A stretch of 64,000 nt of DNA from Myxococcales bacterium (GCA_035635635.1 DASQAS010000056.1:18666-82665), one strand, 5' to 3'; positions 17,312 to 55,541 are shown, counted from the stretch's first letter. Notes: a model not told the origin generated them from the sequence alone. Program-made: numbers and translations.

Positions 17312-17313
17312 AA

Positions 17314-35012: not shown

Positions 35013-35687
35013 ATGAAGCGAGTCCTTCTTCTTGCGTTCGTGATGGCTGCCTGCGGCGGGAGTGGATCGGGCAATACCGCCGTGGATCGCAACCGCGCCG
35101 GCACCGGCAGCGCCACTCTTCTGGTGTCCGCCACCGTGACAGTGACCAATTCCTCCACCACCCCCAGCACCGCGCTGGGCGTGGACGTGAGCGACGGCCT
35201 CAACGCCAAGGTGAGTGGCGCCACCGTGACCATCCAGAACGCGGGCCTGGGAGGCGACGTCGCGCTGACCGAAGGCACGGCGGGGTCGGGGCACTACACC
35301 GCCTCGAAGACCTCGCTGCCCTCGGGCGACTTCACCCTCTCCGTGGTGAGCGGCACGAACAAGGTGCAGGGCGTGGTTCTGGGAAGCCCCGGTGTCCACG
35401 CCATCAACGCCCCGGCCCTGAACGGGACGGTGACGGCGAACCAGCCGCTCGACGTGAGCTGGACGACGCCGGCGATGGCCAAGTCCGCGACGATCACGAC
35501 CCGCAACTACACGATCCAGGTGCCGGACACGGGCGCGTACACGATCCCGGCCGCCAACAACCCGGTCCGGACGGGCCAGCGCGTGATCATCACGCGGACC
35601 AACGAGACGGACATCGCGGGCGGGCTGCCCGGATCGAGCATCCGGGCGAGCGTGACCACCACCGTGGATCCGTTCAACGTCCAATAG
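35013..35687 (+). CDS. Lipoprotein (Ig-like/beta-rich, hypothetical)
   Basis: The ATG is preceded by GAGAGGAG. The lipobox is LLLAFVMAAC. The body is Thr/Val/Ser/Gly-rich and beta-strand-like. The 3' end overlaps the convergent Orf-J by 14 nt. Confidence 0.7.
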   Translation: MKRVLLLAFVMAACGGSGSGNTAVDRNRAGTGSATLLVSATVTVTNSSTTPSTALGVDVSDGLNAKVSGATVTIQNAGLGGDVALTEGTAGSGHYTASKTSLPSGDFTLSVVSGTNKVQGVVLGSPGVHAINAPALNGTVTANQPLDVSWTTPAMAKSATITTRNYTIQVPDTGAYTIPAANNPVRTGQRVIITRTNETDIAGGLPGSSIRASVTTTVDPFNVQ

Positions 35688-38193
35688 CCCGACGAATCCG
35701 CAGGGCGACCAGCGAGGGGCCGGACACGTCCAGCCACTGCTTCAGGACCGAGCGGCGGCCGTCGAAGGCCAGGTTTCCGCCGGCGAGGAGCGTCTGGAAC
35801 GGCGACGACGTGTCCGCCCCTCCGCTGAACCACTGCTCGACGCGCAGGAGCGAGTCGCTGCCGCCGGAGAACCCGCTCCACCAGGAGTCCTCGCGGTGAG
35901 GAGAGAGATCCGGCTCGGCTGACGCGCCCGCGCCGGCGATGCCGAACCAGCGCTGGACGAGGCCGTCGCCCGAGGCGACGTCCACGCCCTGCAGCTCCAG
36001 CGCGGGCTCCGCCGGCTCCTCTGCCGCGCGCACGCGCAGCGCGCCTTCGCAGACGCGCCGCTTGGTCATGCGCTGGATCTGGAGCGGAGCCTCGAGGAGG
36101 GGGCGCCGCGCCAGGTGCTCCTCGATGCGCCGCAGGGTCTCCTTCTCCCGGCGCTCGTCGGGCACGTCGAGGGCGATCAGCTTCCAGCCTTCGCCGAGCA
36201 GGTGCAGCCGGACGCCCGCGCCGCGCAAGGTGGTGAGGTCCGGCGCGGCCCGCCGCAGGGTCCCCTCGAGCTGCCGGCGGACCAGGGCGATGACGGTCTC
36301 CAGCAAAGCCTCGCCGAGCTGCCCGTGCCGCGCGCCTTCGGCATCGCGGAGCGCGCCGCCGCCCGCGATCAGCGCCCGCCAGCGCCGCGCCGTCGCGCGA
36401 TAGGCGCTGCGCACGGAGGTGGGCGCATCGCGATCCGCGCTGGCGAAGGCCGCCGCGTCGATCAGGCGCTCGCCGCCCAGCAGATAGCTCATCGAGGAAC
36501 CCGGAACGAAGGGAAGCGGACGGCCCGGAGCCTGGGGCAGGCGGACGGTGACTTGTAGCGTGAGCCCGCCGAAGTCCACGAAGGTCTCCAGCGGATGGCG
36601 ATCGTCGCGCGCGCGCGCCCGGCCGGAGCGCGCCGCGAGCGGGTCGGTCACCAGCCGGTGCGAAGCGGTAGCCCAGGCTGCGGACAGCCCGGCGCAGAGC
36701 TGCCGGCCGACGCCGTCGAAGATCGTCCGGAACGGTTGCTGGCCGCCGCTGTCGAAGGCGCACTCCGGATAGGTGAGCACCGCCTCCGCAGAGGACAGAT
36801 TCGGCCGGCGCAGCGTCCAGCGGCCTCCTTCGGGCGTGACCAGCGGAGTGCCGTGGGCGGCCGCCAGGGTGCGGCCCAGGTGAAAGGCGTACGTTTCCAG
36901 GAGCCTGCGGCTCACCTCGGTCCGGTCGGCGAGCGGCTGCGGCACGTCCGCCAGCCAGTCCGAGAGCAACAGGAGCTCGGGGGACTTGAACCGATCGATC
37001 AGGAGCGGCGCGTGGTTGCCTCCGCTTTCCGATGCCTGCGGCAGCCAGAGCTGCGCGGCGGCGTCGGGCGCGCCGGTCAGCAGATCCACCAGCGCCTCCG
37101 GCGAAGCGGCGGACAGCGCGGTCGGGAGCTGCTCGCCCGGCGCCAACAGATGGTCGGCGCAGCCCACCTCGTGCGCGCTCGCCGCGTCGCCGGCGATGCG
37201 GCGGAATCCGGAGGGGGAGGGGCGCGGCGCTCCCTGCGGCAAGAGCTTCGCGCCGATGGATCCGGCGGCCGCGTTGTCTTCCTCGACCGCCACCGTGGAC
37301 GTGCTTCCGATGTCCACCGCGAGGCGCAGCGTGCCGGGCACCGGCGAAGCGGCTGCGCTGACCCCGGCCTCCGGCGCGTCCTTGGTGCACGCCTGCCAGA
37401 TCGCCGGCAGGTCCCAGAGCGCCTGCGGCTCCCGGCCCTCCAGGACGCGCAGGACCGCCCAGCGGGGCCAGCCCGCGGGCCAGTCGGCGGTGGGCGGCGA
37501 ATCGCTCCGCGGCATCACCCAGGTGACGGTGGTCTGCCCCCGCGCTCCGGGGGCAGGCGCGACGGGCGAGGCCGGGGCGCCCAGCCAGATCCGCACGGGA
37601 GCGCGGGGCTCCGATGCGCGTCGGGCGGCTGCGCGCAGCCAGACCTCGCCGCGCCAGTCGGCGGCGGGGAACGGCGGCGACAGCGCCAGGTGGAGGCGCA
37701 GCGAGGCGGCGACCGAGCCGTACCGGCCCGCGAAGACCAGCGGGAAGCACTCCACCGCCGCAAGCTCCGTCTCGCGCACGACCGCGAGCCAGGCCCGCTG
37801 CACCACGCGAGGCCCGTCGAGGTGCGGCGGTCCCTCCAGCAGCAGCACGCCGGCGTCGATCAGCCAGGCGCACCAGGACGGCATCGGAAGGGGCAGCAGG
37901 GCCTTCTCCGCCGCGGGACCCTGGGCGTTGGCCGGCACCAGCAGCGGATCCGCGCAGCCCACCGCGTCGCGCCAGTCGGCGAGCGCGGGCCGCAAAAGGC
38001 CGTTCACCGCCGACTCGGCCAATCCGAAGCGCGCGCCCATGCCCGTGAGCAGCGCGTCGATGGCGAGCGCCGGCCGCAGCGGCTCGGACTGTCCCCATCC
38101 TCCGGGCCGCTGCGGAGGAGCGCCGCGGCGCTTGAGGACGCGCAGGACCGCGCCCGCCGCGCGCCGGATGGAGAGGGAATCGCCGTCCGCCAT
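35674..38193 (-). CDS. Orf-J: 839-aa protein with actin/Hsp70-like (ASKHA) phosphate-binding motifs; last gene of the 10-gene operon
   Basis: The full ORF is ATG-initiated, 6 nt after the Orf-I stop. The phosphate-1-like motif is LAVDIGSTSTVAV (D294, nt 37297-37314). The phosphate-2-like motif is FVDFGGLTLQVTV (D540, nt 36565-36576). An adenosine-motif-like LHLLGEGWK lies near aa 667. There is no signal peptide or TM segment. Confidence 0.75.
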   Translation of the reverse strand: MADGDSLSIRRAAGAVLRVLKRRGAPPQRPGGWGQSEPLRPALAIDALLTGMGARFGLAESAVNGLLRPALADWRDAVGCADPLLVPANAQGPAAEKALLPLPMPSWCAWLIDAGVLLLEGPPHLDGPRVVQRAWLAVVRETELAAVECFPLVFAGRYGSVAASLRLHLALSPPFPAADWRGEVWLRAAARRASEPRAPVRIWLGAPASPVAPAPGARGQTTVTWVMPRSDSPPTADWPAGWPRWAVLRVLEGREPQALWDLPAIWQACTKDAPEAGVSAAASPVPGTLRLAVDIGSTSTVAVEEDNAAAGSIGAKLLPQGAPRPSPSGFRRIAGDAASAHEVGCADHLLAPGEQLPTALSAASPEALVDLLTGAPDAAAQLWLPQASESGGNHAPLLIDRFKSPELLLLSDWLADVPQPLADRTEVSRRLLETYAFHLGRTLAAAHGTPLVTPEGGRWTLRRPNLSSAEAVLTYPECAFDSGGQQPFRTIFDGVGRQLCAGLSAAWATASHRLVTDPLAARSGRARARDDRHPLETFVDFGGLTLQVTVRLPQAPGRPLPFVPGSSMSYLLGGERLIDAAAFASADRDAPTSVRSAYRATARRWRALIAGGGALRDAEGARHGQLGEALLETVIALVRRQLEGTLRRAAPDLTTLRGAGVRLHLLGEGWKLIALDVPDERREKETLRRIEEHLARRPLLEAPLQIQRMTKRRVCEGALRVRAAEEPAEPALELQGVDVASGDGLVQRWFGIAGAGASAEPDLSPHREDSWWSGFSGGSDSLLRVEQWFSGGADTSSPFQTLLAGGNLAFDGRRSVLKQWLDVSGPSLVALRIRRAIGR

Positions 38194-38199
38194 GACGCC

Positions 38200-38535
38200 T
38201 CAGCGCAGGTGCGCCCGGGCCGCGGCCGCGGGGGCATCCTGGACTTCCGGGGGTGGAGAGCTCTTCGGCAAGGCGGGCTCCTCGTCCAATTCTTCCTCGA
38301 CGAGGCGGCGCCGGCGCAAGAGCACCCGGAAAACCCCGGTGCTGACCGCGAATAGCCCGGCCAGGGCGGCGACGAGGTTGGCGTCGCCCAGGGCGGCCGC
38401 GGCGTCGAGCCACTCCGGGGGGCCGTACAGCGCCAGGGCACTGGGCACGAGCAGGCTGACCCCGGCGCCGGCGAGGAGCGCCAGGATCCACGGCCTGCGC
38501 TCGAGGCGCAAGAGTCTGCGTCCCATCCTGCTCAT
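38200..38535 (-). CDS. Orf-I: 111-aa two-TM membrane protein
   Basis: ATG at 38535 overlaps the Orf-H TGA (ATGA). The product is MSRMGRRLLRLERRPWILALLAGAGVSLLVPSALALY...ANLVAALAGLFAVSTGVFRVLLRRRR plus an acidic/Pro tail. Only the last 111 codons of ORF 38200..40725 are accepted. Confidence 0.6.
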   Translation of the reverse strand: MSRMGRRLLRLERRPWILALLAGAGVSLLVPSALALYGPPEWLDAAAALGDANLVAALAGLFAVSTGVFRVLLRRRRLVEEELDEEPALPKSSPPPEVQDAPAAAARAHLR

Positions 38536-41030
38536 GGCTCCCCGCCGTCGATGGTCCACTCCCGGGCCGGGATGCCGGAAGAGCGCGCCAGTCCGAGGTC
38601 CACCAGTGGACTGTGCGAGACCAGGATCGCGGCATTGCGGCCCTGGGAGTCCGAGACCCAGCCGAGCAGCGCGTCCATCAGCCGCAGGTGGGCCGCGGGA
38701 TCGGCGGCGCCGAAGGGCTCGTCGAGCAGGAGCAGCCGCGTCCGGCGGGCCGACTCCAGCCGCATCACCTCCGCGGCGAGGAGGATGCGCTGCCGCTCGC
38801 CCTCGGAGAGGGCGCCGATCGATCGCGCCAGCAGTTCCCTGTCGAGCGCGCCGCCGTACCAGCGCTGGGCGAGCCCGTGCCCCTGCGCGGCGGAGACCTT
38901 GCCCAGGACCTCGCGGACGGGCATCTCGGCGGGAAAGGCCCGGGCCGCGTCCTGCATGACGAAGCCTATTTGTAGCGAGAGCGGCGGCCGCGCGGCGATC
39001 TCGCGGAGCAAGGTGGACTTGCCGCAGCCCGAAGGGCCGGAGAGGACGACCAGCTCGCCGCCGCGGATCCGGGCGGAAGCGGAGACGGAATAGGGGCGAC
39101 CGGAGATGGTGGTGCGGTCGCGGAGGACCCGGACGCCCTCGCCGTCCTTCGCGGCCGCGGACTCGCCCGGCGCGCGCTCCCGGGCCGCGAACAGGGCGTC
39201 GACCGCCGCGAAGTACTGCTGCAGCCCCTGCGGCTCGGCTCCCTCCCAGCGGCGGACCGGACCGGCGAGCACGGAGAGCGCCCGCGCCTTGCGCTCCTCG
39301 ATCCAGAGGACGTGGTCGGCGACGGCGTCCGCGGCCCGATCGCCGAGGAGCGCGTCGATGGGCTCGGGATCGTGCGAGGTGAGCACCACCGCTCCGGTTC
39401 CGCTGAACTGCGCCGGCAACAGCTCGCGCACGCAGTCGAGCAGCGCGTGCGTGCGCGGCCCGTCCTGCGCCGAGGTGGGCTCGTCCAGGAGCAGCGTGCA
39501 GGCCGGATCCGCGCGCGCCCGCGACAGGGCGAGCGAGAGCAAGAGGCGCTGCCGCTCGCCGCGCGAGAGCGCGGAGACGGGCGTGAAGGGATCGAAGAGG
39601 CGCCTGCGGAGCGGAGCGTCGCCGAGCCGGCCGAGCAGGTCCCAGAGCACCCGATCGGCGTGCCCGTCGCGGGGCCGCGCCAGCCGGGCGACGTCGGGTG
39701 CGGAGAAGGAGCGCGGCAGCGCCTCGTCCGGATCCTGCGGGACCAGCACCGCGCGGGGAAGCTGCGCCGTCCAGGCGCGCAGCAGCGTGCTCTTGCCGGC
39801 GCCCGAAGGACCCAGCACCCACTGCAGCGCAGGGCGCGTGGCGATGCCGTGCGCGCTGGCCACCCCTCGCGCGAGGACGCCGCGGCCGACGCGGAGCACG
39901 CCGCCCTCGAGGGTGACACGTCCGGTCCCGCGGGGCAGCGTCTGCGCCAACAGGAGCAGGAGGGCGGCCGCGACCACCGCAAGGTGCGTCGTCCCCCAGG
40001 CGGCGGGGAACGGCAGCGGCAGGCCGTCTCCGCCGGCGCCGCGCAGGAACAGCGCGGCTCCGAGCGAGGGATAGGGCGGGAACCCCGGCGGGCGGAAGCT
40101 GTCGATCAGCGTGTTGGAGAGGATGTCGATCAGCGCGGCGGCCGCCATTCCCGCCAGCAGCAGCGCGCCCAGCTCGCGCCGCCGGCGCAGCCACAGGCCC
40201 TGCCGGACCAGGATCGACCAGGGCCGCTCGCCGCGGACCCGGGCGGCCAGGAACGAATCGCTGCTCTCCTCCGCGGCGCGGACGTCGTCCAGCCAGCTCC
40301 ACAGCCCCCGGCCGATCCCGAGGCCCAGCCCCACCGAGGCCGCGAGCAGGCCGGGCGCGATGCCGAGAAGCGATCGATAGGCGAGCTGCTCGTCGGGCCG
40401 CAGCGCCAGCCATTGTCCGGCGGCGAGGAAGGCCACCTCCGCGCAGATCAGCGCGCGGACCACCAGGGCGAACGCGACATAAGGGACGGCGCCGGCGAAC
40501 GAGAGCACGCCGCCGATGGCGCGCGCCCACCCGTCCATGCGCTGCGCGTAGAGCAAGAGCCAGAGGGCGCCGATCACCGCCGCGGTGGCCAGCGCGCCCA
40601 GCGCGACCAGCGTGGTGCCGGCGAGCATCATCGCCAGCGGCGGCTCCGAGAGGCGAGGGAACGGAAGCGCTCCATGCCAGGCGAGCAGAAGGCGCGGCGG
40701 AAAGAGCACGCCGCTCGAGCGCCACGCCTCGGCGGTGGCGGCGGCGATCAGCACGAGCGCGCCGGCGGACAGGGCGTCCGAGATGGATCGCGGAGGCGCG
40801 GCGTCCCGGCCCAGCCCCTCGCGGACGTTCACCCGGATGAAGGCGAGCACGATCGCGCCCCCGCCGGCGAGCAGGAGCCCGAGGAGCGCGGCGGCCGCCG
40901 GGTAAGGCTCGTCGCGGGCGGGCAGGACCAGAAGCTGCCCCGCGCCGACCGCAAGCAGCACGGCTCCGAGCGCGGAGAGGGCGCGGAAGCCGGGCGGGAG
41001 AAGGGCGTCGATCCGTGGGCGCCCCGTCAT
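38532..41030 (-). CDS. Orf-H: fused ABC transporter polypeptide (Opp/Dpp-like permease domain plus two ATP-binding cassettes)
   Basis: ATG at 41030 overlaps the Orf-G TGA. The N-terminal half has about 6 TM segments and an EAA-loop-like stretch, SDSFLAARVRGERPWSILVRQGLW. NBD1 has GPSGAGKSTLL, LSRGERQRLLLSLAL and LLLDEPTSAQD. NBD2 has GPSGCGKSTLL, LSEGERQRILLAAEV and LLLLDEPFGAAD. The upstream 385 codons of ORF 38532..42185 are rejected. Confidence 0.85.
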   Translation of the reverse strand: MTGRPRIDALLPPGFRALSALGAVLLAVGAGQLLVLPARDEPYPAAAALLGLLLAGGGAIVLAFIRVNVREGLGRDAAPPRSISDALSAGALVLIAAATAEAWRSSGVLFPPRLLLAWHGALPFPRLSEPPLAMMLAGTTLVALGALATAAVIGALWLLLYAQRMDGWARAIGGVLSFAGAVPYVAFALVVRALICAEVAFLAAGQWLALRPDEQLAYRSLLGIAPGLLAASVGLGLGIGRGLWSWLDDVRAAEESSDSFLAARVRGERPWSILVRQGLWLRRRRELGALLLAGMAAAALIDILSNTLIDSFRPPGFPPYPSLGAALFLRGAGGDGLPLPFPAAWGTTHLAVVAAALLLLLAQTLPRGTGRVTLEGGVLRVGRGVLARGVASAHGIATRPALQWVLGPSGAGKSTLLRAWTAQLPRAVLVPQDPDEALPRSFSAPDVARLARPRDGHADRVLWDLLGRLGDAPLRRRLFDPFTPVSALSRGERQRLLLSLALSRARADPACTLLLDEPTSAQDGPRTHALLDCVRELLPAQFSGTGAVVLTSHDPEPIDALLGDRAADAVADHVLWIEERKARALSVLAGPVRRWEGAEPQGLQQYFAAVDALFAARERAPGESAAAKDGEGVRVLRDRTTISGRPYSVSASARIRGGELVVLSGPSGCGKSTLLREIAARPPLSLQIGFVMQDAARAFPAEMPVREVLGKVSAAQGHGLAQRWYGGALDRELLARSIGALSEGERQRILLAAEVMRLESARRTRLLLLDEPFGAADPAAHLRLMDALLGWVSDSQGRNAAILVSHSPLVDLGLARSSGIPAREWTIDGGEP

Positions 41031-42097
41031 CGGACGCTCCCGATCGCGCTGAGCGAGGAGCGGATCTCCACCACGAAACGGTGGCCGAGCACCCAGAGCA
41101 CCACCAGCGCGCCGCCGACCAGCGCCGCCGACGACAGCCGCTCCCCGACCGAGGCCTCGCGCATGGCCGAGCGGATCAGCGAGCCGAGCCCGCTGGCGGC
41201 GGCGACCACCGAGGGGTCCTGGTCCGCCTTCGCGCAGGCGAACACGGCGGCGGCGGCGAGCGCGGGCACCAGGGGAATGAGCCACTGGACGGCATCGAGC
41301 GCGGACAGCCGTGCGGCCGCCGACACCGCGGGCCTGCCGCCCAGCGCGCTCAAGCAGGCCGCCTGGGGCGCGGAGCCGAAGAGCCCGCGCGCCGCCGCGC
41401 CGGACAGCGCGCCCGCGAACCCGGCGACGAAGAGCACCGCGGCCGGGCCGACGCCGAGGGAGCGCGTGCGGTCGTAGAACAGGGCCGGATCGAGCAGCGG
41501 CCACAGCGGTAGGACGACCAGGACCGCGGTGGCGCCGGAGAGCAGCGCATGCCGCGCGGCGGGCCGCAGGCTCCGCCTCCAGCGGATCAGCTCGGCGGCG
41601 ATTCCACCCGCGGCCGCGGCCAGGACCGCGAGTCCGAGGCCGCCGAGCAAAAGCCCGAGAGCGTCGGACACGCCGCGGGCGGCGCTGCGGAAGCGGCTGC
41701 GATCGGCCACCGAGGCCGCCCACGCGTCGCGGAGCGAAACCAGGCGCGCTCCGTCGTCCCCGGCCGGCGTCAGCGCCCACGGTGGCCGGCGCGCCCAGAG
41801 CGATCGCAGCGGTCCGTCGGGCGCGTCCGCTCCCAAGCTCCGTTCCGCGAGCGCGCGCAGGACGGCGAGATCGAAGTCGAGATAGGCGGAGGCGGAGGGC
41901 TGGGTCCGCTCGGGGGCGCCGCTGCGGTCCACCAGCGCCAGCGCGACGGCGAGCGCGAGCAGGCAGGCGCAGGCGACGGAGGCGGCGGCCAGCCATCGGG
42001 TCGCGGCGGCCGCGATCTGCGCCGCGCGAGCGGCGCCGGCCAGGGCATCCAGCCCGTCTGTCGGCGCCGCGATCCGCAGCTCCGTGGGGCCGCTCAT
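41027..42097 (-). CDS. Orf-G: polytopic membrane protein, probable ABC permease partner (OppB/DppB-like topology)
   Basis: ATG at 42097 overlaps the Orf-F TGA. TM1 is followed by a loop of about 100 aa and then about 5 further TM segments. I see no clear sequence motif beyond topology. Confidence 0.65.
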   Translation of the reverse strand: MSGPTELRIAAPTDGLDALAGAARAAQIAAAATRWLAAASVACACLLALAVALALVDRSGAPERTQPSASAYLDFDLAVLRALAERSLGADAPDGPLRSLWARRPPWALTPAGDDGARLVSLRDAWAASVADRSRFRSAARGVSDALGLLLGGLGLAVLAAAAGGIAAELIRWRRSLRPAARHALLSGATAVLVVLPLWPLLDPALFYDRTRSLGVGPAAVLFVAGFAGALSGAAARGLFGSAPQAACLSALGGRPAVSAAARLSALDAVQWLIPLVPALAAAAVFACAKADQDPSVVAAASGLGSLIRSAMREASVGERLSSAALVGGALVVLWVLGHRFVVEIRSSLSAIGSVR

Positions 42098-43107: not shown

Positions 43108-45341
43108 GGCTGCGCGCTCCAGGCCTGCAGCAGCCGGGTGAAGTACCAGGGGCTGCGCGCGGCGTCGCCCTGCGACTCGGGAATGGTGAGCGTCGCAGGC
43201 TGGAGGAAGGCCAGGGGATAGATCGGCGCCGGTCCGTTGCGCGCGACGTCGTCCTCCAGGAGCCGCAGGCTGTCCGCGCGCGTCGGCGGCGGTCCGCCTT
43301 GGGCGCCGAGCCAGGCCGGAGGCGGATAGACGATGGAGGACTCGTAGCCGGCGAGCAGCGTGCGACCCGGGCTCTCGCTCACCGCCTGTCCGCCGCTCAG
43401 GTTCTGGTTGCCGGCGGGATGCAGCAGCGGGACCAGCGTCGGGTACTTGCGGTTGTAGTAGTTGCTCGCAACCGTGAGCAGCACGTCCCAGCTCCCCAGC
43501 GCGCCGCGGTGCACCTCGCTCGCCTTCACGCCCGAGACGGAGACGGAGACGCCCTGGGCCGCGGCGACGGCCGCGATGCGCGCGGCGGCGGCGGCCCAGG
43601 GCTCCTCCTGGACGTAGACGAGGCTGAGCGGACGGCAGCCTTCCTCGGCGATCTCGCCGAACGGCTTGGCCTGGCGCCCGACGCAGGCATCCGCGGCGCC
43701 GTCGCCGCCCTTCGGGACCAGGCCGGCCACCGTCCGCGCCCGCGCGTCGCAGGGGGCGCGGTTCTCGCCCGCGCCGAGCGGCTCGCGCAGGTCCCGTTGC
43801 AGCTCGAGCAAGCGGTCCTCGCTGGCCGCGCCCAGCGCATTGAAGAGCCGCCGCACGCAGCGCGTGTTGCCGTCGCGGCGCGCGAAGAGGGCGACCAAGG
43901 ACTCGAAGCCGTCCTCGGCGGGCTCGATCGCCCGGCGGGGTCCGTCCAGGTTCCAGAGGGCGCGGAAGAGGCAGATGCCCGGCTGCTGCCGGCACTGCAG
44001 TCGCCTCTCGGCCACCGACTCGGGCCAGAGCGGCTGGTACCGGACCAGCAGGCGCGATCGCGCGCCCTTCGCTTTCGGCACCTCCGCCGAGCTCTCCAGC
44101 GTGACGTGCAAGGCGTCGTAGTCGGTCAGGTGGAACGGGCCGCTCGCGCCGATGTGGTAGGGGATCTCGTCGGCCGCGAGGTTGGTGAGCGGCGGCTGGA
44201 GCTTGCCCACCGACGCGCGGAGCTGGGCGGCCATGCGCTCCCGCTTGAGCTTGCAGGCGCGCTCGCCGCCTGCCTCGCACCTGAACAAGTCCACCATCGC
44301 CTCGTCGTCGAAGGCGGCGCGCTGCAGGCTGCGCAAGAGCGGGGTGGCGCGCGAGGGCAGGCGCGGATCGAACGGCGCGAACACCGGGAAGGCCAGCGTC
44401 TGCGCCGCCATCTCCGCCTCGTGGGGCCGCTCGACGTCGATGCCGCGGATCAGCAGGCAGAGCCCGCGGGGCTGCCGCTCGAAGAACGCGCGCAGGTCCG
44501 CCGCCGTCTCCGAGCTGCCCGGCGTGCCGAGCGTCGCGGCGTTCCAGGGCTGCGCCTCGATGAAACGGGAAGCGTTGGTTGCGGTCACGGCCTCCGACAC
44601 CAGCGAGCTCAGGTGGACGCTCATGGGGACGGGCCCGCAGGCAGCCGGCGCCACGGAGGACGGCGCGGCCGCCTGCGCCAGCGCCTGGTAGTAGTAGAGG
44701 CTGGCCGCGACGTCGTCGGGGGCGAGATCGGCGTTGCTCCCCTGGAAGCAGGCTCCCTGCGCGCAGGTGCGGACCACGCCGCAGTAGAGCAGCGCGCTCG
44801 CCGCCTTGCTCACCGCGCAGTTCGCCCCTCCGGGCGCGCAGCTCTCGAGCCGGCCGACCTCCAGGATCGAGCCGGGCGCATCGTCCGTCTGCCGGCGCGA
44901 GAGCTGCAGGGCGGGGAGGAAGAGCGCGTCGTGGAGCTGTTGCTCGGTGAGCGTGGCGTACTGGCCGGGGCACAGCGGCGCGACCCGGCCGCTGACCTCG
45001 TAGACCAGCACGTCGCCGACCTCGTCCACCGCCTGCGCTTCGCACTGGTGCGCGGATCCCGCGGTCGCGAAGCGGAGGAACTGGTCCGGCAGGTCCGACT
45101 GCATCGGGCACTTCAGCAATACCGGGCCGGTGGGCTCGCGCACCTTGAGCACCGCGTGGCGGCCGCGGACCGAGTAGGTGGCCTGCTTGCGCACGGCCGG
45201 GGGCAGTGCACGGTCGATGCGCAGCGCTCCCATGCGCTCGGACAAAGACCAGGGCGAAGCCGGCCGCACGGGCGCATTGCTGCGCACGTACGCGGTGCCG
45301 GAAGCGGCGGCCCCCGCAAAGGCCATCGCGATGGCGAACAA
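43104..45341 (-). CDS. Orf-E: exported Cys-rich protein (745 aa), hypothetical
   Basis: A TTG start at 45341 gives the signal-like MFAIAMAFAGAAASGTAYV; an in-frame ATG lies 5 codons downstream. There are about 18 Cys spread through the protein. I recognise no domain. Confidence 0.7.
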   Translation of the reverse strand: MFAIAMAFAGAAASGTAYVRSNAPVRPASPWSLSERMGALRIDRALPPAVRKQATYSVRGRHAVLKVREPTGPVLLKCPMQSDLPDQFLRFATAGSAHQCEAQAVDEVGDVLVYEVSGRVAPLCPGQYATLTEQQLHDALFLPALQLSRRQTDDAPGSILEVGRLESCAPGGANCAVSKAASALLYCGVVRTCAQGACFQGSNADLAPDDVAASLYYYQALAQAAAPSSVAPAACGPVPMSVHLSSLVSEAVTATNASRFIEAQPWNAATLGTPGSSETAADLRAFFERQPRGLCLLIRGIDVERPHEAEMAAQTLAFPVFAPFDPRLPSRATPLLRSLQRAAFDDEAMVDLFRCEAGGERACKLKRERMAAQLRASVGKLQPPLTNLAADEIPYHIGASGPFHLTDYDALHVTLESSAEVPKAKGARSRLLVRYQPLWPESVAERRLQCRQQPGICLFRALWNLDGPRRAIEPAEDGFESLVALFARRDGNTRCVRRLFNALGAASEDRLLELQRDLREPLGAGENRAPCDARARTVAGLVPKGGDGAADACVGRQAKPFGEIAEEGCRPLSLVYVQEEPWAAAAARIAAVAAAQGVSVSVSGVKASEVHRGALGSWDVLLTVASNYYNRKYPTLVPLLHPAGNQNLSGGQAVSESPGRTLLAGYESSIVYPPPAWLGAQGGPPPTRADSLRLLEDDVARNGPAPIYPLAFLQPATLTIPESQGDAARSPWYFTRLLQAWSAQP

Positions 45342-45369
45342 CGTCCTCAGGCAGGACCCTTCTCGGCCG

Positions 45370-47802
45370 TCAGTAGTCCCTCCGCCGAAGGCTGAAGAAA
45401 TAGAAGACCTGGTTGGCTACCGTCGGGGTCAGCGCCATCTCGTAGAGCGAGTCGGTCCGGCGGGGCACGTCGTCGGGATCGGTGAGGTCGGCGACCCGCT
45501 CGTAGATGCGGCCGAGCTGCGGGTGCCGCCCCTGCCGGGTCACGTTCTCGCTGCCGTAGCGGAAGGGATAGGCGCTGGCGATGGCGACCAGCGTGCCAGC
45601 GCCCCCGAGGCGCCGCAGCGTGAGCCGGACTCCGGCGTGGGCGTCGCAACCCAGGGTGAGGCTGCTGGGCGATTCGGGGCTGGACAGGGTCACTTCCTGC
45701 GGGCGCTCCACGCCTTCCGGGCGCGGCGGGCAGATCGGGCCGTCGAACTGCCCTCCGGGCGCCTCGCTGCGCAGCCGCGAGAGCGCCTCGCACGCCTCCT
45801 GCGCGCAGCGATCGAGCTTCTGCACCCACTCGTCGCTGAAGCCGAACGGCGGCGGGAAGTCGAGCCTGCGGCTCTCGGACGGAGCGGGCGCGGCCAGGTC
45901 GGGGCGGTGCAGCCCGAAGATCCTCCGGACGGAGGCAGCCACCTCGTCGGGGCACTTGCCCGAGCGCACCGGGCAGAGGCGGTCCTTCACGGCGTGCCGG
46001 TCGAGCGCCTCGCGGTACGTGGCGCGCAGGCGCCTGCGGATCTCCCGCGCGGTGAGGACCGTCTTGCCGCAGATCAGCGGCTGGGGCAGCAGCTCGAGGA
46101 TGCGCGTGCCCCCTTCCACGAAGATCTTGTACGCGGCGACGGTGCTCACCCGCTGCGCGACGGCCTCGGCGTCGAAGGCCCTGCAGAGGATTTGCGAGGT
46201 GCGCGCCAGGACGCCGCGCGCCAGCTCGTCGTGATCGCGGCGGGGATCGGCCGCGGCGAAGATCTCCTCCAGCCGCTCGGACATGGGCCCGAGGTCCTTG
46301 TCCTCCACGCCCTTGAACAGCTCGGTCAGATCGGGCGCCGGCGGCTCGCAGAGCAGGTCGGACGAGCGGCGCAGCGCGGCCCGCGCGGACGGGATGTCCG
46401 CGACCCGCTCGATGCGCAGGCGCTGCGGATCGCTGCCCAACAGGCGCGCCACGATCACCGCATCTTCGTCCGGGTTGCGGACCGGCGCGGCTCCGGCGCT
46501 CCCGATGCAACGCTTGCCGCGGATCGGCACCGCCTGGTCGCGGACGCGGAAGCCGGCCGGACGCGAGATCCCCGGCACCGGGAGCGCGCTTCCGGAACGG
46601 GCGTTGACCCAGTCGAGGCGCGCCTGCGCGTCGTCGAGGCTCCGGATGCTCGGGAGCCCGGCCAGCCGCTTCTGCAAAGCCGCGGCATCGGGGGCCAGGG
46701 CCACCGTGATCCAGCGCGCGGCGGTGGGCTTGTCCTCCGCCGGGATCGAGGAGAGCTGCGCGGCCGCGTCGAGGTGGGCGCTCGCGCGGAGCCTGGCGCC
46801 GGCGCCCGAGCGCAGCGAGAGCGGCCATCCGTTGGAGCGCGCCGCCGACGCGGCCAGGCCTTCCAGCGCCGCTCCCGCCGCGTCCCAGGCGCGGAACACC
46901 GCGGCCGCGTCGGGAAGGTCGGGCTCGGGGCCGTAGAGCTGGGCGCGGCTGGCATCGAGCTGCGAAATGGCCGCCTGCACCGCCTTGAGCGGTCCATCCA
47001 GGCCGACGCCGCAGCGGCGGGCCTCGCCGGCGAGGCCGTCCGCCAGCTCGCGAAGCTGCGGCGACGGCCGCAGGGGCGCGTCCTGCGGCTGGGTGGCGAA
47101 AGCGCTCTCCACTCCGTTCAGCTCCTGCACCGCGCGGCGGAAGAAGCTGTCCAGCGCTTCCCGAGCGCCAAACAGGCCCGTCAGCTCCACGTCCACCCGG
47201 CACACCTTGCACTCGCGCCGCGGCCAGTCGTCGCGCGCCCGCCGCGGCCGCGAGAGCACGATGGTGAGCGAGCGCTGCCCCGCGCCGGGCGTGACGTCGA
47301 GGATCCGGTCGAACTCCGCGGGCTGGTCGGCGTCCAGCTCCAGCCGGGCGCCGAAGCGCGGCCGCCGGACCAGGACCCGGAGCTTGCCCATGGCCTGCGG
47401 CAGGTCGTCGATGGTGACGCGCAGATCGCCCAGCTCTCCCTCGACTGGGACCTGCACTTCCTGCGAGACCAGGATGCTCTCGCAGCGCAGGCCCGAAGCA
47501 GGCTGCGGCGATGGGGTCGAGCTCCGCACCGTCTGCAGCGGCGCCGAGGCGCAACCGCCGGTTGCGAAGAGGAGGAGCAGGAAGAGGGCCACGAGCACCG
47601 CGGCCAGCGGCGCGCGGCGCCGCAGCCTCCAATGCGCGGCCCAGGGATGGACGCCGGGCTCGAGAGCGAGCCGCAGCGCGGTGCGCGTCCAGGAGACGCG
47701 AATCAGCCCGTCGTCGGGCGCCGGGAGGGCCTTGGCGACCACGACGCTGCCGCGGCCGGCACCCGCCGCTTCGTTGGTCGCGCTTGGGGCGCGGGCGCTC
47801 AT
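45370..47802 (-). CDS. Orf-D: membrane-anchored or lipoprotein-like Cys-rich protein (810 aa), hypothetical
   Basis: ATG at 47802 overlaps the Orf-C TGA. After about 55 aa comes RLRRRAPLAAVLVALFLLLLFATGGCASAP, a signal-anchor or lipobox-like segment. About 14 further Cys follow. I recognise no domain. Confidence 0.7.
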   Translation of the reverse strand: MSARAPSATNEAAGAGRGSVVVAKALPAPDDGLIRVSWTRTALRLALEPGVHPWAAHWRLRRRAPLAAVLVALFLLLLFATGGCASAPLQTVRSSTPSPQPASGLRCESILVSQEVQVPVEGELGDLRVTIDDLPQAMGKLRVLVRRPRFGARLELDADQPAEFDRILDVTPGAGQRSLTIVLSRPRRARDDWPRRECKVCRVDVELTGLFGAREALDSFFRRAVQELNGVESAFATQPQDAPLRPSPQLRELADGLAGEARRCGVGLDGPLKAVQAAISQLDASRAQLYGPEPDLPDAAAVFRAWDAAGAALEGLAASAARSNGWPLSLRSGAGARLRASAHLDAAAQLSSIPAEDKPTAARWITVALAPDAAALQKRLAGLPSIRSLDDAQARLDWVNARSGSALPVPGISRPAGFRVRDQAVPIRGKRCIGSAGAAPVRNPDEDAVIVARLLGSDPQRLRIERVADIPSARAALRRSSDLLCEPPAPDLTELFKGVEDKDLGPMSERLEEIFAAADPRRDHDELARGVLARTSQILCRAFDAEAVAQRVSTVAAYKIFVEGGTRILELLPQPLICGKTVLTAREIRRRLRATYREALDRHAVKDRLCPVRSGKCPDEVAASVRRIFGLHRPDLAAPAPSESRRLDFPPPFGFSDEWVQKLDRCAQEACEALSRLRSEAPGGQFDGPICPPRPEGVERPQEVTLSSPESPSSLTLGCDAHAGVRLTLRRLGGAGTLVAIASAYPFRYGSENVTRQGRHPQLGRIYERVADLTDPDDVPRRTDSLYEMALTPTVANQVFYFFSLRRRDY

Positions 47803-48710
47803 GGCTGGGCGAGCAGCTCGGAGGCCTCGAAGATGCGCTGCAGGTCGCCCGGGAGGAGCGGCTCGAGGGCGGCCGCGCGGCGCGCGAACTCGTCCGTGCA
47901 GGACCGCTGCGCCTCGGGGAAGGCGCGGGCCGAGAGCCGGGCCTCGGTGGTGCGTCCGGAGAACTGCGTCCGCTCTTGCGGGTCGCGGCGCCGGTTGTGG
48001 GCGCGCTCCACCGCCGCGTAGAGCGCGAGGGGATGGACCTGGGGATGCAGCGAGGACAAGGCGTCGAGGTCCAGCGCCAGCGCGCTCTCCTCGTCCCGGC
48101 CCCCGACCAGGTCGTCGAGCACCGCGGCCTCCGCCACCGCGAGTTGCTGGTCGAAGAGATACGTCTGCGCCGGCTCCATGGCCGCGCGGAACGCAGCGCG
48201 GTCGGCCGGCTGCTGGAGCTGGGCGATCGCCACCAGGAACGAGGCGTCGAACTCGCGCACCGCCCACAGCTCGCTGCCCCTGGAGACGAGCGGGATCCTC
48301 AGCCGGGAGAGCGCGTCGAGGTACTCCCGGCGCCGCTCGGGCCGGCCCCGGCCGGCCGGGACCAGGATGAGGATGGGGCGAGCGGCGTCGCGCCACCCCT
48401 GCGGCATCGCCTCGATGGCCTGCTCGGTCAGCTCGATGAAGATCTCCTCGCCGAGCGGCTTCGCCATCAGGAGGTTCCGGACCAGGAGCAGCGGCTCGGC
48501 CTGGCCGAAGAGCCAGGCGTGCAGCGCCTCGCGCTCGGCCCGCTCGAGGCCGTCGAAATCGATCAGCCCGAGCCAGGGCCCCGCGATCCATTCCAGGGCG
48601 GGCTTGCCGCGAACCCGCGTTCCCGGTCCGGGCGCACCCGCGGAGGCGCAAGCGCCGGCGGTCACGGAGAGCATCCGGGTCCAGGTCGCTGCCACATTGA
48701 GGGAAACCAT
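47799..48710 (-). CDS. Orf-C: cytoplasmic hypothetical protein (303 aa)
   Basis: The ATG is preceded by GAGG about 7 nt upstream. There are no TM segments, no signal peptide and no motif I recognise. Third positions are consistently G/C. Confidence 0.6.
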   Translation of the reverse strand: MVSLNVAATWTRMLSVTAGACASAGAPGPGTRVRGKPALEWIAGPWLGLIDFDGLERAEREALHAWLFGQAEPLLLVRNLLMAKPLGEEIFIELTEQAIEAMPQGWRDAARPILILVPAGRGRPERRREYLDALSRLRIPLVSRGSELWAVREFDASFLVAIAQLQQPADRAAFRAAMEPAQTYLFDQQLAVAEAAVLDDLVGGRDEESALALDLDALSSLHPQVHPLALYAAVERAHNRRRDPQERTQFSGRTTEARLSARAFPEAQRSCTDEFARRAAALEPLLPGDLQRIFEASELLAQP

Positions 48711-48765
48711 CGGAACCTCGTGCGCTGTCGTACGTCCGTCGAAGCAAAAAACCCCGGCGAGGTGG

Positions 48766-49686
48766 CTACAGGAGCGAGAGCAGCTGGCGGAACCCCCTCA
48801 TGTGGTCGTATTTCCTGACGTTTCTGAAGAGCTCCGCGAGCTCCTCCGGCGAGGGGAGCGCGGCGGATCCGTCCGCGAGCAGCGCGAGCCCGCCCGGCCG
48901 GTCCTTGGCGGCTGCCACGAACCGGGCGCAGAGGCCCGAGGCGTCGGCCAGCGCGGCCCGGGCGGCGCGCGCCGCCTCGACGAACGCGGGGAGATGCGCG
49001 GGCAGAAGAGCCCAGTGGGCTGGAAGCGACCCGCAGAGCCGCTGGAGATCTCCCCGCAGGTCGGCGGGTCCGGCCAGGAACAGCCGCAGCCCGGCGTGGC
49101 GCACGGATGCGGGGTGGCGCGCCCAGCCCGAGCTGAGCACGCGCAGGACCAGGGTGATCGCGACCTGCGCGGTGAGCACCGGCGTCTGCCGCGCGCCAGC
49201 GTGCAACAGGGCGAACCAGTCGGCCTCGGGGACCGTGGCCAGATCGGGTCCGGCCTGCAGCGCGGGCCGCAGCCTTGCGTCTACGCAATGGAAGGCAAGC
49301 GCGAAGGCCGGGTCGGCGACCAGCGTCTCCAGCTCGGAGACCGCGCCTTCGGGAGATTCCACGGCGGCGGGCGCGCAGAGCCCGTCAACTCCCGGGAGCA
49401 CCTGGTGCAGGCCTTCGTCCTCGAGCGTGACCGCGATCGCCGAGACCGCGAACGCCGGCAAGGCCTCGAAGTCGAAGAGCCACCGGGTCAGGTCCTGCCA
49501 CAGCGTCCGCTCGACCTCCACCTGCGCGACGCCGCTTTCCTGGAGCCGCATCCGCTCGCGCCCGAGCATCCGATCGACCCAGGGCCGCAGCCGCGGAGAC
49601 TTGTCGAGCAGCGCCTCCCAGCGCTGGACCAGCTCGGCTCCGGAGCTGCTCGCGGAGGCCTCCGGCCAGATCCAGTCTGAGCGCAT
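48766..49686 (-). CDS. Orf-B: cytoplasmic hypothetical protein (306 aa)
   Basis: ATG at 49686 lies 10 nt after the Orf-A stop, inside ORF 48766..49854. There are no TM segments or signal peptide, and I recognise no motif. Confidence 0.55.
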   Translation of the reverse strand: MRSDWIWPEASASSSGAELVQRWEALLDKSPRLRPWVDRMLGRERMRLQESGVAQVEVERTLWQDLTRWLFDFEALPAFAVSAIAVTLEDEGLHQVLPGVDGLCAPAAVESPEGAVSELETLVADPAFALAFHCVDARLRPALQAGPDLATVPEADWFALLHAGARQTPVLTAQVAITLVLRVLSSGWARHPASVRHAGLRLFLAGPADLRGDLQRLCGSLPAHWALLPAHLPAFVEAARAARAALADASGLCARFVAAAKDRPGGLALLADGSAALPSPEELAELFRNVRKYDHMRGFRQLLSLL

Positions 49687-49696
49687 CCTGCGCACG

Positions 49697-50917
49697 TCAG
49701 GTCCTCTCCAGCAGCTCGCGGGCGTTCTCCTCCAGCCAGCGCGCCAGCGCCGGCATGCGGACGCGGGCCCGCCCCAGCATTGCCCCCGCATCCTCCGGCC
49801 CCAGCTCGATGCCCAACCGCTGCAGCGCCGAGGATACGTCGCCGGCTTCCGCATTGGATATCGTGCTTCGGACCAATACGGAGGCCGCCTCGAGGATCTC
49901 GCCGGAAGGCACGCCGGACGCCGGAGGCGCGGTCAAAAGCCGGATGGCGAGGTCGTCGGTCCGGTCGGGAAGCCATTCGGCGGACCCGAAACCCGCCTCG
50001 GCGAGGGCAGCGGAGAGGCCGCCGGAGGGGCCTCCCCGGGTGCGCCGCTCGCTGGCGGCGTGCGCGAGCAGCGCGAAGAAGCAGGCTCCGGCCATCTCGG
50101 GAGTCAACGCCTCGGCGCGCGGCAGGAATTTCCCGGACGCGTCGAGCCAGGGCCAGAGGTCGCGGCCGGGTCCGGCGGCGAACCGCGCCAGCAGGGCGCG
50201 CGCGTGCTCCTGCGTCCGGTGCTCGTCGTTGCGGCGCCGCAAGCGCTTGCGGGCGTTCCCGGCCGCGGCCTGGAGCAGGCTGGGAAGATAGGCTCCGCGG
50301 GCCTCCATGCCGGACCGGGTCGATCGGCCCGTCGGGTGGGGGAGCCAGAGGCGATCCTGCACCGCTGTCCAGGCGGCTCCGTGGGGGTGGCCGGCGTGCC
50401 GGAATGCCGCATACGCCGTCTGGGCGATCTTCAGCACACGAACCACGAACGCCGCGAAGGGCTCTACGCGCAACGTACGCTGTCCGACCCCGTGCAGTAC
50501 CTGACGCACCGTGGACCTCGGCGTGCGCGAACCGAGGAGCCGCTGGGCCACCGACTCCAGCTCCGCCACGCTGCGCAAGAGGGCCCAGGTGAGGGCGAAG
50601 CCCTCCGCCTTGCCCAGCGCCAGCGCCGCTTGCGCCAGCCACTCCCGCGTCGCCACGGGCAGGGCGGGCCGGGGTGAGGGGCAGGAACGCCAGGAAGCCG
50701 GGTCCATCGCCAGGTCGACGGCGCGCTCCGCATCCGCCCCGAGGCGGGCGCGAAGCTCGGGGGGAAAGAGCAGCCTGGCGTCCAGATCGCTGCGGCGGCG
50801 GCCCCGGGTGGGGGCGCGCACGAACCAGGACGCCAGCGAGACCCCCGACGGGCGGCGCTCGTCCCGCGCCTCGAAGGCCAGCCGGAGACATGACTCGAGC
50901 TGCGGAAGTGGCTCCAT
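49697..50917 (-). CDS. Orf-A: cytoplasmic hypothetical protein (406 aa), first gene of the operon
   Basis: ATG at 50917 follows a 106-nt divergent intergenic region. The protein is helical and Arg/Ala/Leu-rich, with no motif I recognise. Confidence 0.6.
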   Translation of the reverse strand: MEPLPQLESCLRLAFEARDERRPSGVSLASWFVRAPTRGRRRSDLDARLLFPPELRARLGADAERAVDLAMDPASWRSCPSPRPALPVATREWLAQAALALGKAEGFALTWALLRSVAELESVAQRLLGSRTPRSTVRQVLHGVGQRTLRVEPFAAFVVRVLKIAQTAYAAFRHAGHPHGAAWTAVQDRLWLPHPTGRSTRSGMEARGAYLPSLLQAAAGNARKRLRRRNDEHRTQEHARALLARFAAGPGRDLWPWLDASGKFLPRAEALTPEMAGACFFALLAHAASERRTRGGPSGGLSAALAEAGFGSAEWLPDRTDDLAIRLLTAPPASGVPSGEILEAASVLVRSTISNAEAGDVSSALQRLGIELGPEDAGAMLGRARVRMPALARWLEENARELLERT

Positions 50918-51023
50918 CCCCTCGCTGACCTGCGTCCGGTGTTGAAGGTGACCGTGGCCCCCCGTTTGCGGTCACGCCAAAGTCCCGCTAGGACATACGT
51001 TCGGGACGGCCGGAGAATTCATC

Positions 51024-52739: not shown

Positions 52740-53298
52740 AGCGCAGCGCGTACGCGGCCACCGAGGCGGGGATGACGACGGTGCGGAGGTCGGAGGCTTG
52801 CGCGAAGACCTTCGGCGCCTTGCCCCAGTTGTAGGTCAGCGCGGCGAAGGTGGCGCGATCGAGCTTGCCGCGCCAGCCGGCGGCGCGCAGCGTGCGGTTG
52901 TGGCCTGCGCGCGCGAACCGCTCGTCCCACCGGCGCCAGGCGTCCTTGTAGATGCGGGCCGCGGCGATGGCGTTGATGCGCGGATCCCAGAGCAGCCCGG
53001 GCGAGTCGAGGCGGAAGATGCCGGCCCACCAGGGCATCACCTGGAAGGCGCCGACCTCACAGGAGCGCCCCAACCAGGGGCGCAGCGTGGTCTCGGTCAT
53101 GCCCAGCGCCTCCAGCGCGTAGGGATCGACGCCTTCCTGGTTCGCCACCTCGTGCACCAGCGTCCGCAGCCACTCGCGCAGCCGGGGGTCGTCCGGGGCC
53201 TGGGGCCCGCTGCGGGCGGCGCAGGGCTCGGAAATGCCCGCGGCGCCGGCCCCGGAGGCGAGGGCCAGCGCCGCGATCACCCACACGGTGCGGTTCAC
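52636..53298 (-). CDS. Exported lytic transglycosylase (SLT domain)
   Basis: GTG at 53298 overlaps the upstream TGA. The signal peptide is MNRTVWVIAALALASGAGAAG. The SLT core is YALEALGMTETTL (catalytic Glu context)...EVGAFQVMPWW...AARIYKDAW. The 3' end overlaps the convergent gene 51024..52739 by 104 nt. Confidence 0.78.
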   Translation of the reverse strand: MNRTVWVIAALALASGAGAAGISEPCAARSGPQAPDDPRLREWLRTLVHEVANQEGVDPYALEALGMTETTLRPWLGRSCEVGAFQVMPWWAGIFRLDSPGLLWDPRINAIAAARIYKDAWRRWDERFARAGHNRTLRAAGWRGKLDRATFAALTYNWGKAPKVFAQASDLRTVVIPASVAAYALRFSLALREARGRRRADSDTPRDRPTRSRAGATKAS

Positions 53299-54143: not shown

Positions 54144-54208
54144 ATGCGACTCCTCCAATGTAGGGGACACCCGATTGGGTGTCCCCAGCGGGTTGTCCCG
54201 GACTGGTA

Positions 54209-54727: not shown

Positions 54728-54741
54728 GGGCTCTCCTCGGA

Positions 54742-55497: not shown

Positions 55498-55541
55498 GGG
55501 GAGTCCTCCTGAACTTCGCCACAGCAAAAAAATCCAGCCCG

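Follow-up and report, generated by a model that had tools for sequence, protein, structure and literature searches.

A conserved ten-gene operon of uncultured Myxococcales with a probable, highly divergent oligopeptide-type ABC module

We analysed a 64,000-nt stretch of DNA from a Myxococcales bacterium (GCA_035635635.1, DASQAS010000056.1:18666-82665), here called the window, and in particular a group of ten open reading frames (ORFs), Orf-A to Orf-J, which all lie on the minus strand and run from 50917 down to 35674 in a region of 73-76% guanine-plus-cytosine (GC) content. A preliminary description, based on the sequence alone, had read them as a single co-directional, translationally coupled unit with no recognisable system identity. 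Here we report that the ten genes are one functional, vertically conserved and ancient operon, and that three of the products, E, G and H, probably form a cryptic, binding-protein-dependent ATP-binding cassette (ABC) module of the Opp/Dpp type. The genes and their presumed promoter region are the following:

50918-51023, no strand assigned, 106 bp: presumed promoter region, the divergent intergenic region between Orf-A and a gene for an HExxH protein
49697-50917, minus strand: Orf-A, 406 aa, cytoplasmic orphan without Pfam, NCBIfam, PADLOC or PDB match; GC at third codon positions (GC3) 0.88
48766-49686, minus strand: Orf-B, 306 aa, cytoplasmic orphan without family match; GC3 0.90
47799-48710, minus strand: Orf-C, 303 aa, cytoplasmic orphan without family or PDB match; GC3 0.93
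45370-47802, minus strand: Orf-D, 810 aa, probably a lipoprotein or a periplasmic protein anchored in the membrane, without family or PDB match; ATGA overlap with C
43104-45341, minus strand: Orf-E, 745 aa, exported, cysteine-rich, the most conserved protein of the operon; distant relative of the family-5 solute-binding proteins (OppA/DppA, cluster C)
42094-43107, minus strand: Orf-F, 337 aa, exported orphan with 10 cysteines and without family match; GTGA overlap with E
41027-42097, minus strand: Orf-G, 356 aa, predicted permease with six transmembrane (TM) segments by hydropathy and OppB-like topology, partner of H
38532-41030, minus strand: Orf-H, 832 aa, membrane domain of 8-9 helices and two complete ABC cassettes (PF00005 twice), with an EAA-like coupling loop at about 256-283
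38200-38535, minus strand: Orf-I, 111 aa, two-TM protein by hydropathy
35674-38193, minus strand: Orf-J, 839 aa, cytoplasmic protein of the ASKHA (Hsp70/actin) fold without Pfam match

The ORFs, their coordinates and their lengths were all reproduced, and each of the ten carries a strong coding signal, with a codon-position GC typical of real genes (GC3 0.88-0.94; GC at second positions 0.51-0.62). Five junctions are 4-nt overlaps, with ATGA at C/D, F/G, G/H and H/I and GTGA at E/F, and the others are gaps of 10 nt (A/B), 55 nt (B/C), 28 nt (D/E) and 6 nt (I/J), in exact agreement, when the junction sequences were read again, with the overlaps and gap sizes first described. According to its orthologues, Orf-E probably starts at a CTG located three codons 5' of the TTG. 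Neither a sigma-70-like promoter nor an Rfam element was detected in the intergenic region at 50918-51023, and terminator-like hairpins occur in the region at chance level. In the B/C gap, at 48751-48763 on the minus strand, a weak hairpin with a T-run lies right after the stop codon of B; such sites are also found at chance level.

When all ten proteins were compared with Pfam, NCBIfam and PADLOC, only the ABC cassettes of H were recognised. The two PF00005 matches and the conservation of the motifs confirm the two ABC cassettes that had been proposed for H, fused to a permease. Among 39 homologues, Walker A, Walker B, the Q-loop and the signature (LSRGE or LSEGE) are invariant, as is the H-loop of the first cassette (H553), while that of the second (H806) is kept in 90% or more. 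The best NCBIfam matches of the cassettes are ATPases of the heme, zinc, manganese and B12 types. The AlphaFold2 model of H (pLDDT 83.6, pTM 0.81) has 8-9 membrane helices, and a short helix (258-265), a long helix (270-311) and one further TM segment follow the layout of the coupling (EAA) loop of type I importers. With Foldseek, the best matches of the model were 8wdb_D (E value 1.4e-11, TM-score to target 0.57) and 8j5s_D, the fused DppD/OppD proteins of Mycobacterium tuberculosis; this match mostly reflects the tandem architecture, since ABCE1, ABCF and EttA score nearly as well, and the cassettes dominated the search, so that the membrane fold was not classified.

At the level of profiles, the membrane domain of H aligned weakly with OppB/C (P 0.003; H 256-309 on OppB 202-249) at the EAA loop, with values of 0.26 for FecCD, 0.47 for LolCE, 0.49 for LptFG and 0.04 for the reversed control. 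No Pfam family, BPD_transp_1 and FtsX included, matched the membrane domains of 12 H orthologues, and a four-TM domain of the FtsX/MacB type found support neither in Pfam, where FtsX was not matched, nor in the LolCE profile (P 0.47 for H and 0.65 for G). A search with the membrane domain of H alone yielded little but fragments, low-complexity words having dominated the matches, and this query was rejected. Hydropathy of Orf-G reveals a first TM segment, a 90-aa loop and then five TM segments, with loop positions that fit OppB, and in one distant lineage (L110) G is fused to H. The earlier view of G as a permease of Opp/Dpp topology is consistent with these features, but it finds no echo in the sequence of G, as discussed below. 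We infer a permease fold for both G and H.

The evidence for a binding protein comes from Orf-E. With an alignment of diverse E homologues, hhalign against E. coli OppA, DppA, NikA, GsiB and SapA gave a probability of 76% and an E value of 2.2e-5 over 281 columns, residues 389-719 of E being aligned to OppA 203-517, a segment that covers the region equivalent to PVGTGPY and the C-terminal lobe. A 7-sequence reference gave 8.4e-5, and the controls (reversed references, permease profiles, or the profiles of D, F or H) gave 0.27-0.84. Moreover, two distant homologues of E match PF00496 (SBP_bac_5) at the equivalent region, below the threshold (E values 0.0014 and 0.096; 18 and 12 bits for a cut-off of 32.4). 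The signal of E became significant only once distant homologues were added to the alignment, and clade-only alignments compared by hhalign with E. coli OppB, OppC and OppA were not significant. Profile comparison thus identifies Orf-E as a remote homologue of the family-5 solute-binding proteins. No such signal was obtained when D and F were aligned by hhalign to the SBP5 profile (0.6), and D, E and F have no detectable relationship among one another.

Two earlier statements change accordingly. It had been proposed that only H and J give a functional handle, to which E is now added by profile-profile comparison. The absence of a recognisable system identity holds for the full parts list, which by sequence matches no Pfam, NCBIfam or PADLOC set and no solved structure, but it is too strong for E, G and H, which look Opp/Dpp-type. 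Most of the proteins do not fall into one characterised system: only three of the ten products can be placed in a known one.

The ASKHA-like character of Orf-J was confirmed by an AlphaFold2 model (pLDDT 79, pTM 0.83), by Foldseek and by intact nucleotide motifs. The protein begins with a beta-rich domain (about 1-280), continues with the ASKHA core (about 281-720) and closes with a tail, modelled with low confidence, whose last helix is highly conserved, an order unlike the succession of nucleotide-binding domain (NBD) and substrate-binding domain in Hsp70/DnaK. Foldseek returned 164 PDB matches with an E value of at most 0.001, with Hsp70 NBDs at the top (3.7e-7) and a TM-score to target of 0.47 for ParM. 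Both phosphate motifs are invariant, DIGSTS (DxGST, 294-298) for phosphate 1 and DFGGLT (DxGGLT, 540-545) for phosphate 2. At the sequence level, J matches none of the Pfam families HSP70 (PF00012), MreB, FtsA and PilM, and its profile matches no PDB sequence.

For the remaining six proteins (A, B, C, D, F and I), neither Pfam nor NCBIfam nor solved structures gave a match, and PDB profile searches with J, E (three versions), A, C and D returned nothing meaningful. The layered localisation described before is supported by hydropathy, a lipobox-like motif and signal-peptide-like N-termini. A, C and J are without hydrophobic segment, and B has one weak stretch (residues 70-88) that we do not read as a membrane helix. 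Orf-D has a single hydrophobic segment (66-84) leading to an invariant Cys84 in a lipobox-like LLLA-ASGC motif, preceded by a conserved N-terminal extension of about 60 aa (W..T..RL..P..HPW..WR); such an extension is unusual for a lipoprotein signal peptide and could serve for docking on the cytoplasmic side or for recognition. The N-termini of E and F are signal-peptide-like in the orthologues, and the alignment of F shows a Pro/Ala linker and a conserved CEWWLLP motif. D, E and F contain 15, 18 and 10 cysteines, mostly conserved, as expected of periplasmic proteins, compared with 2-4 in A, B and C. Orf-I, whose length varies elsewhere from 84 to 264 aa, is always found between H and J, or last where J is absent.

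Orf-J has 87 homologues among 5.8 billion proteins, every one at least 49% identical, and the named ones belong to metagenome-assembled genomes (MAGs) labelled "Myxococcales bacterium". A scan with Orf-E of 185,579 species genomes (GTDB species representatives) found 13 loci, all in MAGs of Myxococcales or Deltaproteobacteria, and a metagenome scan with Orf-A found 80 soil contigs of uncultured Myxococcales in which A is 57-100% identical. Wherever the sequence reaches, the ten genes keep one order in all of these 13 genomes and 80 contigs, and synteny extends far past the strain in which the operon was described. Upstream of A, synteny persists for at least 11 kb inside the clade; since it runs well past the operon, colinearity at this level is weak evidence for functional linkage. 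Downstream of J the context varies, with an M28 peptidase gene in the window, an MFS gene in L001 and a rhomboid gene in L003.

The decisive evidence is provided by distant relatives, which were collected by a search with full-length H and an exhaustive phmmer search with E (46 matches, about nine full-length clusters, among 1.84 billion representative proteins), gene identities being confirmed by BLAST. The same gene order is found in about six far lineages (L103, L105, L110, L111 together with L104, L112 and L113), in which E is 22-40% identical and GC content ranges from 39 to 75%. A to J are all present in L103 (E 39%, H 44% identical). In L113 and L105 (E 30-31%) a gene similar to the one divergent from Orf-A, here named up1, comes first, then A to J, then an M23 peptidase gene. 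L111 and L104, two contigs from one sample, carry an up1-like gene and A to J, beyond which lies a convergent gene cluster (H 34%). L112 lacks J and runs from B/C to I. L110, a 1.47-Mb contig of 53% GC, has the order up1-like, A-like, C-like, D, E, F, G+H, I and J, where G+H (13864-17934) is a single 1356-aa protein with two membrane domains and two cassettes. In L109, of 39.5% GC, E is just 22% identical. Distant homologues of Orf-A hold the same position in L103, L111, L113 and L110, and homologues of Orf-C occur in L103, L110, L111, L112 and L113; Orf-B is the least conserved of the three (43-82% identical in the clade, 29% in L103).

One contig of 51.9 kb (k141_6015131, L106) bears two copies. 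The first is a canonical operon, with J at 19946-22541 on the minus strand. The other, at a distance of about 7 kb, has diverged and consists of D-E-F-G-H-I, without A-C and without J, flanked by sensor kinase genes and an amidase-signature gene. This second copy defines D to I as the core of the operon. Indeed, D, F and I are kept with E, G and H in all lineages, this minimal copy included, and A-C, J and up1 recur where E is just 23-34% identical and the flanks differ. The overlaps E/F, G/H and H/I recur in most high-GC lineages. The maintenance of gene order at 22-40% identity and in differing flanks, together with a gene fusion, shows that this is a functional unit. A chance juxtaposition is rejected on the same grounds, namely conservation in distant lineages and the fusion of G with H, and on that of the overlaps that are kept. 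The reading of the ten genes as one co-directional, translationally coupled unit is in this way supported by both the overlaps and the conserved gene order, and the suggestion that their products are made in fixed ratios, as for an envelope complex, is plausible.

The boundaries of the system, first set at A and J, are too narrow, as the divergent HExxH gene probably belongs to it and a set of genes around an M23 peptidase and a GT51 glycosyltransferase travels with it. The genes concerned are:

51024-52739, plus strand: up1, 571 aa, cytoplasmic, divergent from A, with an invariant HExxH (QHEALH) and a C-terminal ALDPRYRE
52636-56728, minus strand: small orphan genes (up2 52636-53298, up3 53295-54170, others to about 56728), associated module, colinear throughout the clade
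56750-57328, plus strand: Peptidase_M23 gene (PF01551, E value 1.1e-23), first of the M23-GT51 operon, associated module (membership unproven)
57316-59280, plus strand: divergent GT51 glycosyltransferase (PF00912, E value 3e-15), start approximate, associated module
59277-62222, plus strand: 127-aa TM ORF, u6 (59641-60450) and u7 (60447-62222, with a single Sel1 repeat), associated module that follows GT51

The up1 gene adjoins A in each clade locus that reaches it, and its homologues lie beside the operon in L111 and L113, where they are divergent, and in L110, where the gene is co-directional. The up1 homologues share the invariant HExxH, a conserved downstream glutamate and the ALDPRYRE motif; up1 itself matches no curated family. 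We consider up1 as probably the eleventh member of the system and, judging from these motifs, possibly a zinc metallopeptidase.

The M23 and GT51 genes, the 127-aa ORF, u6 and u7 make up a single operon, and the small orphan genes of the opposite strand a divergent one. Homologues of the M23-GT51 set accompany the operon in other lineages. The M23 protein of the window is 48% identical to that encoded beside the system in L112, and M23 genes also flank J in L105 and L113. The GT51 protein has no detectable transpeptidase domain, NCBIfam penicillin-binding protein (PBP) models reaching at most 6e-11, far under their cut-offs, and its homologues (46-56% identical) adjoin the system in L104, L112 and L113. 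Homologues of the 127-aa ORF and u6, colinear in the clade, come after GT51 in L104 and L112, and those of up2, up3 and u4c, with homologues of the 195-, 276- and 171-aa genes of L104, cluster after J in L104. A by-eye guess that up2 is an SLT lytic transglycosylase was dropped, being unsupported by Pfam, NCBIfam and PDB. The arrangement of the set differs from one lineage to the other, convergent after J in L104, as M23-GT51-127-u6 after I in L112, and with GT51 by the up1-like gene and M23 after J in L113 and L105. Because the proximity is kept through these rearrangements in four lineages, it suggests a functional tie of the system to peptidoglycan metabolism.

Taken together, these observations lead us to favour, tentatively, a binding-protein-dependent ABC system tied to the turnover or remodelling of peptidoglycan, whose ligand would be a peptidoglycan-derived fragment containing a stem peptide. 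The motor would be a very divergent Opp/Dpp-type (type I, binding-protein-dependent) ABC transporter, with E as periplasmic binding protein, G and the N-terminal half of H as the two permeases, and the C-terminal half of H providing both ATPase cassettes. E would take up its ligand in the periplasm and dock on G/H, and ATP hydrolysis at the two intact sites of H would move the ligand inward, or at least drive an importer-type cycle. D, probably a lipoprotein, and F, a periplasmic protein, both encoded in every copy and placed upstream of E in this scheme, may generate, hold or deliver the ligand. In the cytoplasm, A, B, C, J with its ASKHA ATPase fold and up1 with its HExxH motif may work on the cargo or react to it, in a pathway of cell-wall turnover, recycling or sensing. 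A peptidoglycan-derived fragment is the leading candidate because of the M23/GT51 neighbourhood and the precedent of MppA-Opp, and as a whole the layered operon would then resemble a polymer-turnover locus. The data show the operon and its conservation, the cassettes of H, the fold of J, the remote homology of E and the gene associations, whereas we infer the direction of transport, the identity of the ligand and what A-D, F, I, J and up1 do.

Several points weigh against this interpretation. For the engine, E, G and the membrane domain of H do not attain Pfam or NCBIfam thresholds: Orf-E and 12 orthologues have no PF00496 match at the curated threshold and no direct Pfam or PDB match, the sequence of G gives no signal to any permease class or to the membrane domain of H (P 0.1 at best against Opp permeases), and the match of the H membrane domain to OppB/C is just about 10-fold above the reversed-sequence control. 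The C-terminal extension of OppD/F, oligo_HPY (PF08352), is absent among the best 25 of 46 Pfam families that match H. For the ligand, the aspartate of OppA that anchors the peptide N-terminus (D445 of the precursor) aligns with an invariant tyrosine in E, a replacement that makes classical peptide binding by E doubtful. The neighbourhood with M23 and GT51 is not seen around L103, L109 and L110, and inherited synteny may account for part of it. The leading Foldseek matches of J do not point to a kinase, six proteins (A, B, C, D, F and I) are without fold assignment, and the large, conserved D and F together with the Cys-rich N-terminal part of E (about 390 aa) are unusual for a simple importer and fit a structural or regulatory machine equally well.

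Indeed, the latter features would be explained if the system were a machine for the remodelling or insertion of peptidoglycan, in which the Opp-derived ABC module, like FtsEX with EnvC and the amidases, is a conformational switch powered by ATP and controls M23 and GT51 through D, E and F, while J, an actin/FtsA-like ATPase, would position or scaffold the complex on the cytoplasmic side by binding I or the conserved N-terminal tail of D. D, E and F are large, Cys-rich and highly conserved periplasmic proteins, with E the most conserved, and E lacks the ligand-anchoring aspartate of OppA; the company of M23 and GT51 is kept in four lineages although the genes are rearranged, and the GT51 is itself atypical in its missing transpeptidase domain and its scores far below the PBP cut-offs. 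The ParM/Hsp70-like motifs and highly conserved C-terminal helix of J, the conserved cytoplasmic segment of D and the conserved translational coupling point in the same direction. However, all characterised relatives of the E/G/H engine are importers, no FtsX-type membrane domain is present (H has 8-9 helices, and its LolCE comparison was the negative one given above), and copies without J exist in L106 and L112, so that we regard such a machine as rather unlikely. If the system were instead an ordinary importer of nutrients (peptides, metal chelates or similar), of Opp/Dpp/Nik type and diverged beyond recognition, the other genes would be hitch-hikers carried by inherited synteny. The assignment of E, G and H agrees with such an importer, and the clade synteny that runs upstream well past the operon means that colinearity inside the clade proves little. 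This explanation is improbable in view of the retention of D, F and I with E, G and H in every lineage, down to the minimal copy, of the recurrence of A-C, J and up1 at 23-34% identity of E and in differing flanks, of the 4-nt overlaps that tie orphans to transporter genes, and of the great rarity of the family in the search with E, unlike nutrient importers. Finally, the layered localisation also resembles trans-envelope machines, and H matches ABC-type ATPases of PADLOC systems (mads_3, E value 4e-36), as would be the case for a secretion, motility or anti-phage defence system using an ABC ATPase. These PADLOC matches are generic ABC-cassette similarity in H alone, the other nine proteins having none; Pfam and NCBIfam detect no secretin, outer-membrane channel, pilin, nuclease or toxin domain in the ten proteins, and the locus is chromosomal, vertically conserved, single-copy in type, of uniform GC and without hallmarks of mobile elements, which leaves very little room for a system of this kind.

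Beyond the importer tied to peptidoglycan turnover that we favour, a broader and more doubtful proposal is that the operon, up1 and the M23-GT51 set make up an undescribed envelope-spanning machine, with an ABC engine of Opp origin and an actin/Hsp70-fold ATPase to power or direct the insertion or remodelling of peptidoglycan or a similar polymer, as a self-contained alternative to the known regulators of elongasome and divisome, built nearly entirely from families without described relatives. No description of such a system was found in searches of the full-text literature. If the reading of the operon is right, an oligopeptide-type ABC transporter has been built into a far larger conserved assembly, with six orphan families, a giant actin/Hsp70-fold ATPase, an HExxH protein and a genetic tie to peptidoglycan enzymes; bacteria would have a new way to couple cell-wall turnover or growth to ATP hydrolysis, and functions would be gained for seven or more protein families that Pfam and NCBIfam lack. 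The system is rare yet old, on contigs from 39% to 75% GC, and has been retained, which argues for a specific, selectable role. More generally, a known engine can lie concealed in an orphan operon until distant homologues are brought in. For a specialist, the surprise would lie in the composition of the operon and its link to peptidoglycan, the function itself still being deduced.

Elsewhere in the window, all on the plus strand, we observed a 2089-aa ORF (18866-25135) whose sole recognisable domain is a C-terminal eCIS core (PF13699, E value 6e-26), a domain known both from polymorphic toxins and from the cargo and toxins that contractile injection systems carry. The segment 7187-11262 encodes a 924-aa protein with two ATP-grasp modules, the second being a D-Ala-D-Ala-ligase C-terminal domain (E value 2e-69), followed immediately by a Peptidase_S58 (DmpA-type aminopeptidase) gene. 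A signalling cluster includes a HAMP-adenylate/guanylate cyclase (13929-15680), a GAF-GAF-GGDEF diguanylate cyclase (25475-27553) and a PilZ-domain protein (28941-29639).

Among the known systems close to the operon are OppABCDF (or MppA-OppBCDF) and DppABCDF of E. coli (PepT, TC 3.A.1.5), with which it would share a family-5 periplasmic binding protein (here E, by remote homology), two permeases (here the OppB-like G with its six TM segments, and H, whose EAA-like loop aligns weakly with OppB/C) and two ATPase cassettes with intact motifs. MppA-Opp imports a peptidoglycan tripeptide, in parallel with the M23/GT51 neighbourhood found here. Unlike in E. coli, no component beyond the H cassettes attains the thresholds of Pfam or NCBIfam, and one of the permeases forms a single protein with both cassettes, which show no oligo_HPY extension among those best 25 of 46 families, E is about 200 aa longer, disulfide-rich and devoid of the ligand-anchoring aspartate, and there is no counterpart to up1 or to seven further conserved proteins (A-D, F, I and J). 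The OppABCD and DppABCD systems of M. tuberculosis (PDB 8j5q-8j5s and 8wd9-8wdb) have both cassettes on one polypeptide and are the best structural matches of the H model. Their tandem cassette is a separate protein, whereas in H it is fused behind the permease, and H has only four cysteines. Mycobacterial OppD also bears an iron-sulfur cluster.

Another likeness is found in FtsEX-EnvC, which governs peptidoglycan hydrolases by way of an M23/LytM protein. It too is an ABC ATPase complex with genetic links to an M23-family protein and to genes of cell-wall synthesis, possibly coupled in both cases to an actin fold (FtsA there, J here). FtsX is however a four-TM type VII domain that works without a binding protein, in contrast to the 6 and 8-9 helices and the binding-protein homologue of the present system. 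J can also be compared with ASKHA ATPases that bind to small membrane proteins (PilM-PilN, FtsA-FtsN) and with Hsp70 NBDs and ParM, as it has the ASKHA fold with phosphate motifs and is encoded right after the small membrane protein I; it differs from them in its 839 aa, its unassigned beta-rich N-terminal domain of about 280 aa and its C-terminal extension, and the match is at the level of the fold only (TM-score 0.42-0.47). In conclusion, the known part of this operon is the kind of its engine, a binding-protein-dependent ABC transporter, and what is new is its position outside every curated model, the fusion of a permease with two cassettes, and the seven or eight conserved partners without described relatives that accompany it.

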